Below, in pieces: positions 21,721-54,393 of a DNA stretch of 64,000 nt. Made by a program: the position numbers and the translations under genes. The notes under the pieces are model-generated. The model ran no database searches and was not told the origin of the DNA. It saw only the letters and a list, made by a program, of their open reading frames with translations. The first letter of the stretch is position 1. Every line of letters starts with the position of its first letter. The stretch is from Candidatus Daviesbacteria bacterium (GTDB lineage Bacteria > Patescibacteriota > Microgenomatia > Daviesbacterales > UBA10151), in NCBI GenBank assembly GCA_016184225.1, contig JACPDA010000005.1, forward strand, positions 3,590-67,589, read 5' to 3'.

Positions 21721-21803
21721 ATAGTCGTCAGTATCGCTTCGCTTTCAGCTGTCAGCTTTCAGACTTAAAATAAAATGTCTGAAGACTGACGACTGAAAGC
21801 TAT
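21721..21803. repeat. Family-A palindromic element filling the def-fmt spacer
   Basis: ATAGTCGTCAGTATCGCTTCGCTTTCAGCTGTCAGCTTTCAGAC-12nt-GTCTGAAGACTGACGACTGAAAGCTAT. Confidence 0.8.
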
Positions 21804-22318
21804 ATTGTGACCTCCTGGAACACATCTGTTCCTGTTTTATCTTTGCCTGTGTACTTATAAAACTTACCTTTCTGCTCCAGCACCCGGTCTGAGAATAAAA
21901 TCCCGTTTAAGTGATCTATTTCATGCTGGAAGATCCAGGCTAATACCCCTTTTAACGGTACGGTAATGGTTTGCCCCTGGTTGTCAAGGTAGCTAACTTT
22001 AATATTGGTCGCCCTTCTAACTTCTCCCCACATATTCGGAACAGATAAGCAGCCTTCAAAATATTGTTTAGTCCGCTTTCCGACAAAGATGATTTTAGGG
22101 TTAATGACGGGGATAAATTTAGTAGTATCTTTAGCCACAAAAAAACTCTCTGCCAGTCCTACTTGAGTAGAAGCCAAACCCACACCCTCCGGCTCTTTAA
22201 AGGTTTTCGTGAGCCTCACCATTTCTCTTAAGGTATTTTTTAGTGCTTGGTTAATTTTTTTAACCGGCTTGGTTTTAACTCTTAATTTTGGATCTGGTGC
22301 TTTAACTACAGATAACAT
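21800..22318 (-). CDS. def: Peptide deformylase (start set at the internal MLSVVKAPDPKL)
   Basis: Motifs EGCLSVP and QHEIDHLNG; the def-fmt pair. Confidence 0.85.
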   Translation of the reverse strand: MLSVVKAPDPKLRVKTKPVKKINQALKNTLREMVRLTKTFKEPEGVGLASTQVGLAESFFVAKDTTKFIPVINPKIIFVGKRTKQYFEGCLSVPNMWGEVRRATNIKVSYLDNQGQTITVPLKGVLAWIFQHEIDHLNGILFSDRVLEQKGKFYKYTGKDKTGTDVFQEVTI

Positions 22319-22354
22319 GAAGGAATTGTAACATTTCTTTGTTATAATTGAAAA

Positions 22355-22660
22355 ATGAGCTACAAAGAACACTATATTCCTAGAACTCCAGAATTAGCAG
22401 CCGGGTTTGCTGCTTTTATGAAAGAAAAGGGGGTAAATATAGCCCGACTAACAGAGCATGCAGGAGTTAGTTACGAGTCAGTACGATTGGTCCTAGATCC
22501 GAATTTCCACACCAGGAGAAGATCGAGAGTTAGTAAGCCACTTTTTCTTAAAATGATAACATCCATGACTGACAACTTGGAAGAAGTGCGTCGGCAATGT
22601 GAAAAAGCCGCTATCCCTATATTCCGCTTACCCGGTGAGCAAATAATGACACTAGTGTAA
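22355..22660 (+). CDS. Hypothetical small protein, possible HTH
   Basis: ORF only. Confidence 0.3.
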   Translation: MSYKEHYIPRTPELAAGFAAFMKEKGVNIARLTEHAGVSYESVRLVLDPNFHTRRRSRVSKPLFLKMITSMTDNLEEVRRQCEKAAIPIFRLPGEQIMTLV

Positions 22661-22663
22661 TTT

Positions 22664-22924
22664 TCATTTTTGCTTTAATTGTTGCAATCTCCACATAAAG
22701 ATCCGGGCTTTGGATTTAGCGCTGTAATATCCTTTGGTAAAATTTAAGGCTTCCTCTAAGGTGTTGCGGTCAACCTCTTTGGCCAGTTTGATATAGAGTG
22801 AATAATGCTTGGTATCTTGCAAACTTTCAGCCAAATACACCCCATACATTTGGAATTCCTTGGAAATATTCTTAGGTCTATCCTTAAACTTAACTTCAGC
22901 GATGGCTTTTCCGATGGATTTCAT
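22664..22924 (-). CDS. Hypothetical small protein
   Basis: ORF; preceded by a family-A repeat that ends at its start codon. Confidence 0.3.
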   Translation of the reverse strand: MKSIGKAIAEVKFKDRPKNISKEFQMYGVYLAESLQDTKHYSLYIKLAKEVDRNTLEEALNFTKGYYSAKSKARIFMWRLQQLKQK

Positions 22925-22939
22925 AATAGTAGTCAGTTG

Positions 22940-23305
22940 TCAGCTGTCAGCTTTCAGACTTTTAATGAGTCCGGAAAGCATGGCGCTAATTTGATCAACT
23001 TCACTAATAATTCCATTGAGTGTTTTATCATTTGCCATCTTAAGGGTAATTGCAATTTCTAATCCGGCAATTACTTCATAAGCTGATCTCTGTGCCATTC
23101 TCAGAAACCTCCTGAATTCTGCATCTGATCCAGAACCAGATCCCTCTGCGATGTTTAAGCAAATACTTACAGCAGCTCTTCTTATTTGATCTACAAGACC
23201 ATATTTTTCTTCCTTCGGAAATTTAGAAGTAATCTTATAGGTGAGTGACACAAACTGAATTGACCGCTGCCATACTGTAAGTTTTCTAAATTTATGTGTA
23301 TTCAT
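22940..23305 (-). CDS. Four-helix-bundle protein (Avd-like), paralog 3 of 4, embedded between the two arms of a family-A palindromic element
   Basis: LTVWQRSIQFVSLTYKITSKFPKEEKYGLVDQIRRAAVSICLNIAEGSG...; repeat arms at 22929-22960 and 23306-23339. Confidence 0.7.
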   Translation of the reverse strand: MNTHKFRKLTVWQRSIQFVSLTYKITSKFPKEEKYGLVDQIRRAAVSICLNIAEGSGSGSDAEFRRFLRMAQRSAYEVIAGLEIAITLKMANDKTLNGIISEVDQISAMLSGLIKSLKADS

Positions 23306-23335
23306 GTCTGACGACTGATGACTGATAGCTGAAAG

Positions 23336-52093: not shown

Positions 52094-52233
52094 ATAATTT
52101 ACTAATACCGATTGACAATCAATCTCTTATAAGTTAAACTGAGGCACATTACACATCTATCAGTTTACCCCGATTAGATCGGGGTTTAGGTTTTCCTGGA
52201 ACTATATTGCTGATAGAGAGGAACAAGGAAAAC

Positions 52234-53073
52234 ATGTACAAATTACCTAGTTTACAGGAATTGCTGGAAGCCGGGGTGCATTTTGGGCATCAGGTTCGGC
52301 GTGGCCACCCCCGGATGCGGCCCTATATTTATGGTGCCAGGGAGGGTGTCCATGTCATTGACTTAACCCAATCCGAGAAATACTTAAAAGAAGCCTGTGA
52401 ATTTGTTTATGAGCTGGGAAAATTCGGAAAAGTATTGCTTTTTGTGGGGACAAAAAAACAGGCAAAACCCGTTATTGAAGAGTTAGCAAAGGAATTTCAA
52501 GCGCCCTACTTGGTCCAGCGTTGGATGGGTGGGTTTTTAACTAATTTTGAGCAGATGCAGAAAAATATCAAGATCCTTAAAGAATACTTAGAACAAAAAG
52601 AAAAAGGCCAACTCTCCAAATATACTAAAAAAGAACAACTACTGCTGGATAGGAAAATGGGTAAACTGCAAAAAGATTTTGCCGGAGTGATGGATTTAGG
52701 TAAACTCCCGGATGCTTTGTTTGTGGTGGATGCTGTCTCAGACAATATTGCCATCAGGGAAGCTCGGAGGTTAAATATTAAGGTGGTAGCAATTACAGAT
52801 TCTAATTCCGATCCTACAGAAATAGATTATCCTATTCCCGGTAATGACGATGCGATAAAATCAATTAAAGTATTGGTAGGGGCGATAGCTTCGGCTTATG
52901 GTGAGGGTAAAAAAGAAGCAGGAAAAGTAGCTGAGAAGCTTTTGAAAAGCCAAGAAAAAGAGGCAGCTAAAAAGGAAGATGTGCTGCCGGAGGAATTAAA
53001 GGAAGAAGTGGCAGTAGCAGAAGAGATGGTGGAGAAAAAGGCGGTTAAAGAGTCAGAGAGGATAGTAGAGTAA
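52234..53073 (+). CDS. rpsB: 30S ribosomal protein S2 (ATG at 52234 with an AAGGAAA SD; C-terminal charged extension)
   Basis: LLEAGVHFGHQVRRGHPRMRPYIYG... Confidence 0.9.
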   Translation: MYKLPSLQELLEAGVHFGHQVRRGHPRMRPYIYGAREGVHVIDLTQSEKYLKEACEFVYELGKFGKVLLFVGTKKQAKPVIEELAKEFQAPYLVQRWMGGFLTNFEQMQKNIKILKEYLEQKEKGQLSKYTKKEQLLLDRKMGKLQKDFAGVMDLGKLPDALFVVDAVSDNIAIREARRLNIKVVAITDSNSDPTEIDYPIPGNDDAIKSIKVLVGAIASAYGEGKKEAGKVAEKLLKSQEKEAAKKEDVLPEELKEEVAVAEEMVEKKAVKESERIVE

Positions 53074-53239
53074 AGAGAGTCCGGCTCGTCTGGATCGCAA
53101 AGTACCGCTCGTGCGACCACGTCACTCGCTATTTGTTTGTTTCGCGCCGAGTGATGGCTGGGTCATGAAGTGATTAGTGTGCTCAACGGCACCGATTACT
53201 TTGTTGTCTTAAGACTTCGCCGTCCTACAAGGAGGATTT

Positions 53240-53689
53240 ATGAAGATTAATGATATAAAAAAATTAAGAGAAGAGACAGGGGCGGGGATTGCCGACTGTA
53301 AGGAGGCTCTGAGCTTGTCGAAGGGCGATATAGAGAAAGCCAAGGAGTGGTTAAAGCAGAAGGGTTTGGATAAAGCTTCTTCCAAACTTGCAAGGGAAGT
53401 TAAAGCCGGGATAGTGGAAGTTTATTCCCATGGTGGGAAAGTGGGGGTTTTGGTAGAAGTCCTCTGTGAGACTGATTTTGTGGCCAGAACCGAGGATTTC
53501 AAAAATTTAGCCCACGAACTTGCTTTGCAGATTGCTTCCATGAACCCGGCAAGCGTTGAAGAATTACTGGCGGAGGAGTATATTAGGGATAATTCTTTGA
53601 CTGTGGAGCAGTTGATTAAATCAGTGATAGGAAAGTTGGGAGAAAATATACAAGTTGGAAGGTTTGAGAGGATAGCTTTGGGAGAATAG
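53240..53689 (+). CDS. tsf: Elongation factor Ts, short form (149 aa)
   Basis: LREETGAGIADCKEAL...; GGAGG SD. Confidence 0.8.
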   Translation: MKINDIKKLREETGAGIADCKEALSLSKGDIEKAKEWLKQKGLDKASSKLAREVKAGIVEVYSHGGKVGVLVEVLCETDFVARTEDFKNLAHELALQIASMNPASVEELLAEEYIRDNSLTVEQLIKSVIGKLGENIQVGRFERIALGE

Positions 53690-53758
53690 AGTCTAGAGTC
53701 AAGAATCTAGAGTCTAGGAAAACAAAGTCTAGACTCTCGACTCTAGCAACTAGTCACT
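53687..53758. repeat. Family-C palindromic element filling the tsf-frr spacer (begins at the tsf TAG)
   Basis: TAGAGTCTAGAGTCAAGAATCTAGAGTCTAGG...GTCTAGACTCTCGACTCTAGCAACTAGTCACTAT. Confidence 0.8.
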
Positions 53759-53765
53759 ATTAAAC

Positions 53766-54320
53766 ATGGATCCGATTTTAAACGAACCGAATGAGAAAAT
53801 AGAGGCAGTATTGCACCACTTCAAAGTGGAAATTGCCGGTATCCGGGCTGGTAGGGCAAACCCGGCTTTGATAGAGAATATTTTGGTTAACGCTTATGGA
53901 TCCAACATGAAGCTTAACGAGGTGGGCAATATTTCTGCCCCGCAGCCCTCCCTTTTAACAATCCAGGTTTGGGATGCTTCTATTTTGGATAAAGTAATCA
54001 AGGCTATCCAGGAAGCAAATTTAGGTTTAAACCCTTCCAATGAAGGTACGTTAATCCGTTTGCCAATTCCTCCTTTGACTGCTGAAAGGCGTGAAGAATT
54101 TATTAAGCTGTTACATCAAAAGAGAGAGGAAGCGCATGTTTCCATCAGACAAATCAGGCATGATTTTAGAAACGGCTGGAAAAAGCAGTCAGACGAGGGT
54201 CAGTTTGGAGAGGATGAATTTTTCCGCAGGGAAAAAATTTTACAAGAGCTGGTGGACAAAAAAGTTGCAGAGATTGAAGAGTTAGGGAAAGCCAAGGCAG
54301 AAGAGCTAACACAAATATAG
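53766..54320 (+). CDS. frr: Ribosome recycling factor
   Basis: Canonical RRF sequence. Confidence 0.9.
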   Translation: MDPILNEPNEKIEAVLHHFKVEIAGIRAGRANPALIENILVNAYGSNMKLNEVGNISAPQPSLLTIQVWDASILDKVIKAIQEANLGLNPSNEGTLIRLPIPPLTAERREEFIKLLHQKREEAHVSIRQIRHDFRNGWKKQSDEGQFGEDEFFRREKILQELVDKKVAEIEELGKAKAEELTQI

Positions 54321-54393
54321 CTTTCAGTCATCAGTCTTCAGCTTTCAGACTTTTCTGATTTGTCTGACGACTGACAGCTGACAGCTGACGACT
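54321..54393. repeat. Family-A palindromic element filling the frr-rseP spacer
   Basis: CTTTCAGTCATCAGTCTTCAGCTTTCAGAC-11nt-GTCTGACGACTGACAGCTGACAGCTGACGACT, then ATTATG. Confidence 0.8.

Follow-up and report, generated by a model that had tools for sequence, protein, structure and literature searches.

Heptamer-built palindromic elements at cistron boundaries of a Candidatus Daviesbacteria genome and their probable kinship with PF05635 cassettes

What are the imperfect palindromes that occupy whole spacers between the stop codon of one gene and the start codon of the next in the genome of a Candidatus Daviesbacteria bacterium, and how did they come to lie there? We analyzed a 64,000-nucleotide stretch of this genome (assembly GCA_016184225.1, contig JACPDA010000005.1, positions 3,590 to 67,589 of the forward strand; hereafter the window), in which these palindromes, here called family A, are built of seven-nucleotide units. 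The elements belong to known kinds, heptamer repeats and cassettes of the intervening sequence (IVS) type; their form and their host group are new. Family A is probably the short form, lacking a gene, of a mobile palindromic cassette of the IVS type that is made of inverted heptamer arrays and in its full form carries a PF05635 gene; family A is best read as related to the short tandemly repeated repetitive (STRR) sequences and to the TAACTGA heptamer repeats. Family A is multi-copy, and both the cassette and the gene-less form are present at some sites in one genome and missing from those sites in a relative. The copies stand at the borders between cistrons and share one orientation with respect to transcription; the terminus (A/T)TAG is usually the upstream stop codon, the other terminus, ...CTGA(C/T)GACTATT, often stands directly at the downstream ATG, which is left intact, and copies persist in frame inside permissive protein loops.

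Architecture and placement of the family A elements

The window contains six family A elements of 58-87 nt, about one such hairpin per 10 kb, with stems of about -30 to -36 kcal/mol (positions in Table 1). The first-pass annotation had placed elements of this kind at several sites, and they were found there or within a few bases, with a seven-nucleotide period and folding beyond that of shuffled sequences. The sequence TCAGNNNTCAGNNNTCAG occurred 22 times, against 0.00 expected from 100 dinucleotide-preserving shuffles. A scan for tandem periodicity over lags 4 to 12 gave 20 runs (684 nt), all of them at lag 7; shuffles gave about zero, and no lag-7 run was present in a 50-kb E. coli control. 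Hairpin stability, which the annotation had proposed as a check, agreed with its claim: the predicted energies of the four hairpins in the def-fmt, mreC-mreD and frr-rseP spacers and next to the start of the ligase gene lay between -30.2 and -36.5 kcal/mol (z between -4.4 and -7.5), and none of 200 shuffles was equally stable. The fold of the 7770-7827 copy was not significant (-5.2 kcal/mol, z -0.6) over 7762-7820, a span that lacks the last seven bases of its upstream arm. This copy had been described as a lone half-copy at 7773-7802, whereas it belongs to a complete element with a truncated upstream arm; the GH1 reading frame enters it and ends at a TGA within it. At the gathering threshold, the hairpins in the window matched no Rfam family, and three tRNAs were the sole Rfam matches there, with no rRNA. 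A search of 21650-25550 in E-value mode returned a single match, a spurious sub-threshold miRNA hairpin. A promoter-like CTGACA-16-TATTAT in the frr-rseP arm was not above its frequency in shuffles and was rejected.

Read in gene direction, family A starts at its upstream end with (A/T)TAG-C-T-(A/T)-TCAG. The left arm has three or four CAG(TC/CT)NT units, the last of which is CAGAC; the loop is about 6-14 nt long and usually A-rich; and the right arm consists of GTCTGA, three to five reverse-type units and CTGA(C/T)GACTATT, followed by ATG. The arrangement is that of an inverted pair of heptamer arrays, and direct-only runs were seen inside open reading frames (ORFs). The family-A-type hairpins examined numbered 66, taken from AT-rich loci of which most but not all belong to the Daviesbacteria lineage: 45 lay between co-directional genes, 6 in convergent and 6 in divergent spacers and 3 inside ORFs, and 6 were left unassigned. 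The claim that elements fill whole stop-to-start spacers in co-directional strings was thus upheld by these 45 hairpins, and also by four consecutive atp junctions in another genome (L062). In the window, the def stop is the TAG of the 21720-21806 terminus, whose ATG-proximal arm carries a GCGAAGCGATA insert and ends in GACGACTATT followed by ATG. Likewise, the terminal TAG of the 35552-35630 element is the mreC stop, and the element ends in GACGACTCTAATT, again followed by ATG. The copy at 25391-25462 does stand before the ligase-like gene, as had been claimed, but it lies in a divergent spacer and not within an operon. The identities of def, fmt, mreC, frr, rseP and the Wzy-type ligase were upheld by Pfam, and MreD gave a weak NCBIfam match only.

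The upstream stop was TAG in 26 of the 34 co-directional junctions with an identifiable upstream ORF, compared with 14 of 67 among the window genes whose end lies outside any element. In 23 of these junctions the TAG sat within the element's own terminus, and the median stop-to-start distance was 82 nt. Of the ATG-proximal ends, 25 were of the GACT type and 4 of the AGCTAT type; of the upstream ends, 17 were of the AGCT type and 5 of the AGTC type. Element orientation tracked gene direction on both strands. Because the GC skew keeps one sign across the window, this polarity follows transcription and not replication.

The pairing of the two arms was regular. Among 38 oriented copies the TCAG/CTGA blocks paired nearly always, whereas the variable dinucleotide of each heptamer did not. 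A CAG-TC-NT unit faced the reverse complement of a CAG-CT-NT unit, and vice versa, in 75 of 79 rungs (Fisher p = 1e-17); each rung therefore has U.G beside C.A and is never fully Watson-Crick. We call this the opposite-flavour rule. Compensatory pairing within elements was rejected, since the result ran the opposite way: an arm paired worse with its own partner than with the arms of other copies. Selection on the RNA strand, which would make G.U commoner than A.C on the sense strand, was also rejected (81 G.U against 95 A.C), and the rule itself identifies no RNA strand because its counts are equal on either strand. Possible readings of the rule are selection against perfect DNA palindromes, tuning of RNase III cleavage, and a polarity mark for a binding protein.

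The first-pass annotation had also proposed that the element replaces the Shine-Dalgarno (SD) region. SD-like pairing, with a threshold of -5 kcal/mol or better, was seen in 12 of 74 crude gene calls of the window, which were made mechanically and may include some wrong start codons. Genes preceded by the element have no SD, as is the case for about 84% of all window genes. The absence is therefore not distinctive, and the element is no SD substitute, because the genome is mostly without SDs whether an element is present or not.

PF05635 cassettes, relatives and known repeats

Two stretches in the ligase region, 22929-22960 and 23306-23339, had been recorded as separate half-copies. They are the two arms of one element (22925-23340) with a PF05635 gene in its loop. 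The product of this gene (22940..23305) has 121 aa and matches PF05635 (1e-36), "23S rRNA-intervening sequence protein", and TIGR02436, "four helix bundle protein"; it shows weak similarity to Avd, a protein of diversity-generating retroelements, and its nearest solved structure is Xanthomonas XCC0516 (PDB 2GSC). The arm duplex was predicted at -44.8 kcal/mol. The upstream arm ends in ...CAGAC, followed by the ATG of the PF05635 gene; the ATG-proximal arm, 22925-22959, overlaps the last codons of that gene and ends in ACTACTATT, followed by the ATG of ORF 22664..22924. The TAG of the element terminus is the stop of the ligase gene.

All four PF05635 genes of the window lie within an inverted repeat built of heptamers or short tandem units, the unit family differing each time, and their arm duplexes range from -28 to -46 kcal/mol. 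The left arm of the family C cassette encodes the last 20 residues, the C-terminal tail, of the window TopA. Gene-less hairpins of a further unit family, B, were also present, and in mreC-mreD-PBP2 and tsf-frr-rseP every consecutive spacer holds a heptamer hairpin. A family B half-arm, GCTAGAATCTAGTCACTATAAAACT, was seen at 1361-1385 (minus strand), directly before the ATG of ORF 473..1357. Heptamer runs of other units (TATAGGG, ACAGGGT, AGAGTCA, AAAGTGC, CAGGCGA) were noted within protein-coding ORFs, among them the ligase gene, a DHO-dehydrogenase-like gene, DprA and TopA, at 23940-23983, 24152-24189, 30479-30517, 38930-38967, 43986-44027, 50245-50274 and 50938-50975.

The elements are not confined to the window. 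A genome scan for the family A core gave more than 113 matching stretches, and several Daviesbacteria metagenome-assembled genomes (MAGs) had many matches each. Among the matches listed, TCAG-anchored heptamer hairpins with other units were found in Gemmatimonadota, Acidobacteriota, Acidimicrobiia, Bacteroidota, Nitrospira, Thiotrichaceae and others. The family A pattern had no match in 2.9 million viral contigs, and a phage vector was rejected. Loci syntenic with the window shared about 72% nucleotide identity with it. Three of these (L014, L035 and L068, from CAYQAW01) are labelled "uncultured Gammaproteobacteria", a label that is probably wrong, and the four MAGs of the L014, L035, L062 and L068 group (CAYQAW01, CAYNFQ01, CAZDEH01 and CAZFZP01) all carry family A elements.

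Comparison with these relatives bore on movement. Locus L035 has no cassette at the site of the window's 22925-23340 element, where the ligase stop and the next start overlap as ATGA instead, and no element at the 25391-25462 site. No target-site duplication was visible at the with/without site compared with L035, where the flanks have diverged. The window cassette and three other loci (L114, L116 and L118) share arms in which ...CAGAC directly precedes the ATG of the PF05635 gene and GTCTGA... follows, at four different loci. Close homologues of the 22940..23305 gene (83-91% identical) have the same arms at other loci, between argS and a metallophosphatase gene in JAQUSJ01 and between a hypothetical and a pilin-like gene in two other lineages. 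The PF05635 protein is 91% identical between the window genome and JAQUSJ01, compared with 64-83% for six syntenic housekeeping proteins. The frr-rseP copy and the atpD-atpC copy of L062 are 97.7% identical over 86 nt. In the F-type ATP synthase operon of L062 (1117-5834), family A hairpins stand at four consecutive junctions: 1117-1189 and 1689-1749, which flank an unannotated ORF upstream of the alpha gene, alpha-gamma, and beta-epsilon. The TopA of L068 contains a complete hairpin translated in frame (about 33 aa), in a loop that differs from the loop holding the half-arm in the window's TopA; it has no family C tail, and L068 is without that cassette. The same element as family C 45776..46208 is carried by L127, and a relative of its gene occurs at yet another position in L128.

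Retention was observed as well. The def-fmt element occupies the same position in three genomes (the window, L035 and L030), and the mreC-mreD element is found in two (the window and an orthologous copy in L088). In an alignment judged by eye, the ATG-proximal arm of the three def-fmt copies was nearly identical, with neighbouring genes at about 72%; unit number differed between orthologous copies. RNase III genes with a dsRNA-binding domain were present in two family-A-bearing loci, L025 and L110.

We also examined how general the association of PF05635 genes with inverted arms is. Of 80 metagenomic PF05635 loci, fetched by a search with a 5-sequence PF05635 alignment, 68 had enough flank, and 170 pseudo-genes shifted along the same contigs served as controls. 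A flanking inverted-repeat score of at least 14 was reached by 71% of the 68 loci and 1.2% of the controls, and a score of at least 18 by 44% and 0.6%, respectively. Among the strongly periodic flanks, 50 had lag 7 and the remaining 5 had lag 8; over the 279 kb of metagenomic PF05635 contigs there were 124 lag-7 and 31 lag-8 runs and almost none at other lags. The arm units were very diverse across these loci and included GGGGACT arrays, presumably the reverse complement of the cyanobacterial STRR1 unit, CCCCAGT. Plasmids carry such cassettes too: GTCAGGA/GTCAGAA arms surround a PF05635 gene in Nostoc punctiforme (-66 kcal/mol), a Riemerella cassette has AAGGTTT arms, and a Gemmatirosa cassette has arms of period 8. 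On a Picosynechococcus plasmid (L126 392-748), the cas10 and cmr3 genes of a type III-B CRISPR operon are separated by a cassette with 8-nt-period arms, and this may be why the PF05635 family has been reported as CRISPR-associated. Two cyanobacterial examples had a heptamer array on one side only. In a Thiotrichaceae locus (L057) a PF05635 gene lies inside the 23S rRNA gene (Rfam LSU model, 3006-7451) in a cassette whose stem consists of TCAGATA/TCAGATT heptamers; the insertion is judged from the flanking rRNA sequence, rather than mapped, to be at helix 45. The same rRNA operon has a gene-less TCAG-heptamer hairpin between two spacer tRNA genes (2383-2429), and two group I introns (5464-6503) lie in the 23S gene besides the cassette.

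Both halves of this architecture have known counterparts. The Coxiella burnetii IVS, a 428-nt insertion in helix 45, has a terminal stem of 28 bp and contains an ORF for S23p (PF05635); just upstream of its ATG come GACAGAT heptamers in tandem, two or three of them depending on the strain, and RNase III cleaves where the first one begins (PMC4990558). The 23S rRNA IVSs of Leptospira and Coxiella resemble the window elements in their terminal-inverted-repeat stem, the PF05635 gene in the loop, the ATG directly after the 5' arm, arm heptamers (GACAGAT in Coxiella, TCAGATA in L057), the existence of short gene-less forms, and a sporadic distribution that suggests horizontal transfer. Unlike them, the window elements lie in mRNA spacers, beside a tRNA gene and inside protein genes rather than in rRNA helices, reach about one per 10 kb, and in family A have stems in which each heptamer regularly contains a mismatch. 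Excision by RNase III has been demonstrated for the rRNA insertions; for the window elements it would follow by analogy. A survey of rRNA insertions in the Candidate Phyla Radiation (CPR) describes PF05635 ORFs in both 16S and 23S insertions.

Direct repeats of TAACTGA have been described from Beggiatoaceae, cyanobacteria and Bacteroidetes; the majority run "forward" and stop about 1 nt short of a start codon, and ribosome-binding sites are few there (MacGregor 2015, PMC4679880). Horizontal spread was suggested for them, with "no mechanism evident", and a translational role was proposed; 23S rRNA, intervening sequences and S23 are not mentioned in that paper (PMC4679880). Like family A, they are CTGA-anchored heptamers in "forward" orientation that end a few bases before start codons, with rare ribosome-binding sites, copies in ORFs and suspected horizontal spread. 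They are direct repeats, with only one inverted pair reported in the BOGUAY genome, whereas family A consists of inverted arrays that run from stop to start. Heptamer repeats are over-represented in bacteria, with slippage proposed as the cause, and three Calothrix heptanucleotides are mentioned in the same paper (Rehm 2015, PMC4692102). The STRR sequences of Calothrix, cited there, and the GGGAATC repeats of Xanthomonas (PMC4692102) are likewise tandem heptamers that lie mostly between genes, in many cases inside operons, and at times form inverted pairs; they differ in unit sequence and host phylum, and no link to a gene cargo was found described. A Nostoc preprint also describes heptamer arrays at start codons. 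In the open-access literature we found no paper that ties PF05635/S23p cassettes outside rRNA to heptamer arms.

Other palindromes are less close. Family A has terminal inverted repeats, AATAG...CTATT, like a miniature inverted-repeat transposable element (MITE), but its gene-bearing partner encodes PF05635 and not a transposase. Rickettsia palindromic elements are palindromic repeats inserted in frame into protein genes and translated; they are about 100-150 bp long, are not heptamer arrays, belong to a different host group and are not known to have a PF05635 partner. The repetitive extragenic palindromes (REP) and bacterial interspersed mosaic elements (BIME) of enterobacteria are multi-copy imperfect extragenic palindromes in transcription units that can affect mRNA stability; family A differs in being heptamer-built and placed exactly between stop and start, and no GTAG REP head was found in the aligned copies.

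Coordinates and other features of the window

The heptamer elements and cassettes are collected in Table 1.

Table 1. Heptamer-built elements, cassettes and in-frame units in the window (kcal/mol and z as predicted)
Feature	Position	Strand	Context	Folding
Family A	7770..7827	-	Between GH1 gene 7792..9156 and ORF 6867..7766 (ORF299); upstream arm truncated	
Family A	21720..21806	-	Fills def-fmt spacer	-32.8 kcal/mol, z -5.3
Family A	25391..25462	.	Divergent spacer, against ligase ATG (25390, minus strand)	-36.5 kcal/mol, z -7.5
Family A	35552..35630	+	Fills mreC-mreD spacer	-31.5 kcal/mol, z -5.3
Family A	54315..54396	+	Fills frr-rseP spacer	-30.2 kcal/mol, z -4.4
Family A, gene-bearing	22925..23340	-	Arms 23306-23340 (upstream) and 22925-22959 (ATG-proximal); PF05635 gene 22940..23305	
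Family A half-arm	44761..44793	+	(CAGTCGT)n CAGAC, translated in frame in a variable loop of TopA	
Family A units	63022..63040	+	Inside DnaX ORF; second short run near 63083	
Family B hairpin, gene-less (AGAGTCT/AGAGTCA units)	36072..36137	+	Fills mreD-PBP2 spacer	-29.3 kcal/mol
Family B hairpin, gene-less	39514..39585	+	Fills spacer between ORF131 and clp ATPase	
Family B hairpin, gene-less	53685..53761	+	Fills tsf-frr spacer	
Family C, gene-bearing (CAGGCGA units)	45776..46208	+	Arms 45776-45812 (left) and 46180-46208 (right); PF05635 gene 45826..46179	-45.7 kcal/mol
Family D, gene-bearing (TAAGTCT/AATACTT units)	12934..13374	-	PF05635 gene 12965..13321; adjoins tRNA-Thr	-28.2 kcal/mol
Fourth PF05635 cassette (ACAATTGTA-type units)	17790..18300 (approximate)	-	PF05635 gene 17848..18237	-36.0 kcal/mol

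Some further features of the window were noted. A sub-threshold match to the T-box leader lies at 56904-57105 on the plus strand (38.4 bits against a gathering score of 93; E 3e-7 in a 381-nt search), within a highly structured 294-nt spacer (-86.8 kcal/mol) upstream of ORF 57127..57564. The repeats GCTAATCCCGATTGAATCGGGACTAATCGCTCGCAATG(AC), which form another family and include a small hairpin, CCCGAT...ATCGGG, occur at about 29500-29570 and 49262-49302, in the spacers upstream of ORFs 29575 and 49303, and a related hairpin is at 52167-52185. A palindrome family of the form GGTTACAA..GTCGCTATAGCG..TTGTAACC was seen at 21255-21288, 56203-56238 and 56833-56860, with one copy inside the fmt ORF. 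Fmt itself (21018-21719, minus strand) has 233 aa; its N-terminal domain is represented by the catalytic part and its C-terminal domain is short, which is in keeping with the reduced proteins of the CPR. Between two tRNA-Thr genes, 13454-13577 contains a hairpin flanked by tRNA-Thr fragments that form a duplicated pair, and it may be an integration remnant or a pseudo-tRNA. A cyanobacterial origin of the window, suggested by a HIP1 site and by the STRR-like repeats, was rejected: there are only two HIP1 sites (GCGATCGC), Fmt is of reduced size, and one window protein is 100% identical to a Daviesbacteria entry at NCBI, although an exact look-up of Frr found no record.

Origin and possible roles

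Several explanations other than a mobile cassette were weighed. That the elements are STRR-type heptamer microsatellites, grown in place by polymerase slippage with local fold-back and without movement from site to site, seems improbable. Slippage has been proposed for the over-representation of heptamers in bacteria (PMC4692102), and unit number does vary between orthologous copies and between Coxiella strains; against it stand whole elements that are nearly identical, even in their loops, at sites without homology in diverged genomes, the defined termini AATAG...CTATT, the clean difference from the element-free L035 site, and the same arms travelling with a conserved gene to four loci. The first-pass annotation had called the elements BIME/REP-like, which proved a loose analogy; the closest relatives are the stems of PF05635 IVSs and the STRR and TAACTGA repeats. 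An origin as REP/BIME palindromes moved by a REP-associated tyrosine transposase (RAYT, an IS200/IS605-like Y1 transposase) is very improbable: the elements are indeed short, imperfect, multi-copy, intergenic and orientation-biased palindromes, but their unit is a tandem heptamer array without a GTAG or other REP head, their orientation follows transcription despite the uniform GC skew, and the partner gene is PF05635, no Y1 transposase or RAYT being found among about 30 window ORFs scanned against Pfam or NCBIfam. It is scarcely credible that they are intrinsic terminators or attenuators between genes, even though stable stem-loops right after stop codons would suit such a role. Every hairpin is without a T tail, hence without a U tract in the RNA, the tails read GACGACTATTATG, and a terminator scan called none of them, in agreement with the first-pass annotation; moreover, the next ATG follows within about 0-25 nt in tightly packed operons such as atp.

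It is rather doubtful, although a good deal speaks for it, that the elements are in the first place selected intercistronic RNA elements that set coupling, cistron stoichiometry or mRNA stability, with their repeated nature secondary; the stem would join stop and start or act as a stabilising or processing signal. The strong polarity relative to transcription favours such a role, as do the exact placement with the TAG in the terminus and the ATG right after ...ACTATT, the four consecutive atp junctions filled in L062, and the def-fmt and mreC-mreD copies shared by three and two genomes, with an ATG-proximal arm far better conserved than the genes. The opposite-flavour rule, kept in nearly all rungs, resembles a structural constraint, and a translational role has been proposed for TAACTGA repeats just upstream of starts (MacGregor 2015, PMC4679880). 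On the other side, L035 is without the element at two window sites and is not otherwise evidently altered there, some copies stand in convergent or divergent spacers or within ORFs, the counts of G.U and A.C on the sense strand speak against RNA-strand-specific selection, and arms pair more poorly with their own partners than with those of other copies. Selection for an RNA function is compatible with a mobile-cassette origin, as a later domestication.

If family A is a gene-less cassette, its life in an operon may be pictured as follows. The element would be transcribed as part of the operon, and its RNA would form an interrupted stem of about 25 bp with the upstream stop codon and the downstream start codon both at the foot of the helix; this shared base could keep the coupling that the ATGA overlap gives in the element-free L035. 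By analogy with rRNA IVS stems of like heptamers, RNase III might cut the stem, which would separate the cistrons and, in gene-bearing copies, release the PF05635 mRNA from the host transcript. Spread might occur by arm-to-arm recombination after DNA uptake or, more speculatively, through an activity of the Avd-like PF05635 protein.

Several points weigh against the mobile-cassette explanation. No transposase, recombinase or target-site duplication was found, in about 30 window ORFs scanned and in the comparison with L035. We infer co-transcription, folding in vivo and RNase III cleavage alike, and the mismatch in every heptamer could block RNase III as easily as tune its cutting. The full hairpin in the essential topA of L068 makes efficient cleavage of every copy unlikely. 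The def-fmt element, kept in three genomes with a nearly identical arm, is more easily explained by a selected function than as neutral junk. The order of events may also be either of two, with the gene lost from a cassette or inserted into pre-existing hairpins.

More tentatively, and with less than even confidence, we suggest that PF05635 genes and heptamer repeats (STRR, TAACTGA, GGGAATC and the CPR hairpins) are halves of one widespread class of mobile cassettes. Such cassettes would colonise transcribed but dispensable positions such as rRNA helices, tRNA spacers, operon junctions and protein loops. The arrays would owe their spread, or its maintenance, to the Avd-like protein, which would recognise its own heptamers, and gene-less hairpins would be non-autonomous derivatives that the host tolerates through excision or processing at the RNA level. 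Heptamer repeats at start codons, 23S IVSs and the common PF05635 genes have been described separately, and they are here suggested to be parts of one kind of element. If this is true, it would provide a concrete candidate for the movement of heptamer repeats between phyla, explain stray PF05635 genes in operons, such as the one between cas10 and cmr3, and give a hint why rRNA IVS stems look as they do. For the CPR, it means that a streamlined genome tolerates about one hairpin per 10 kb, exactly between cistrons. The element supplies stop codons and protein tails and therefore matters for gene calling, and it bears also on operon models and on studies of translation in SD-poor lineages.

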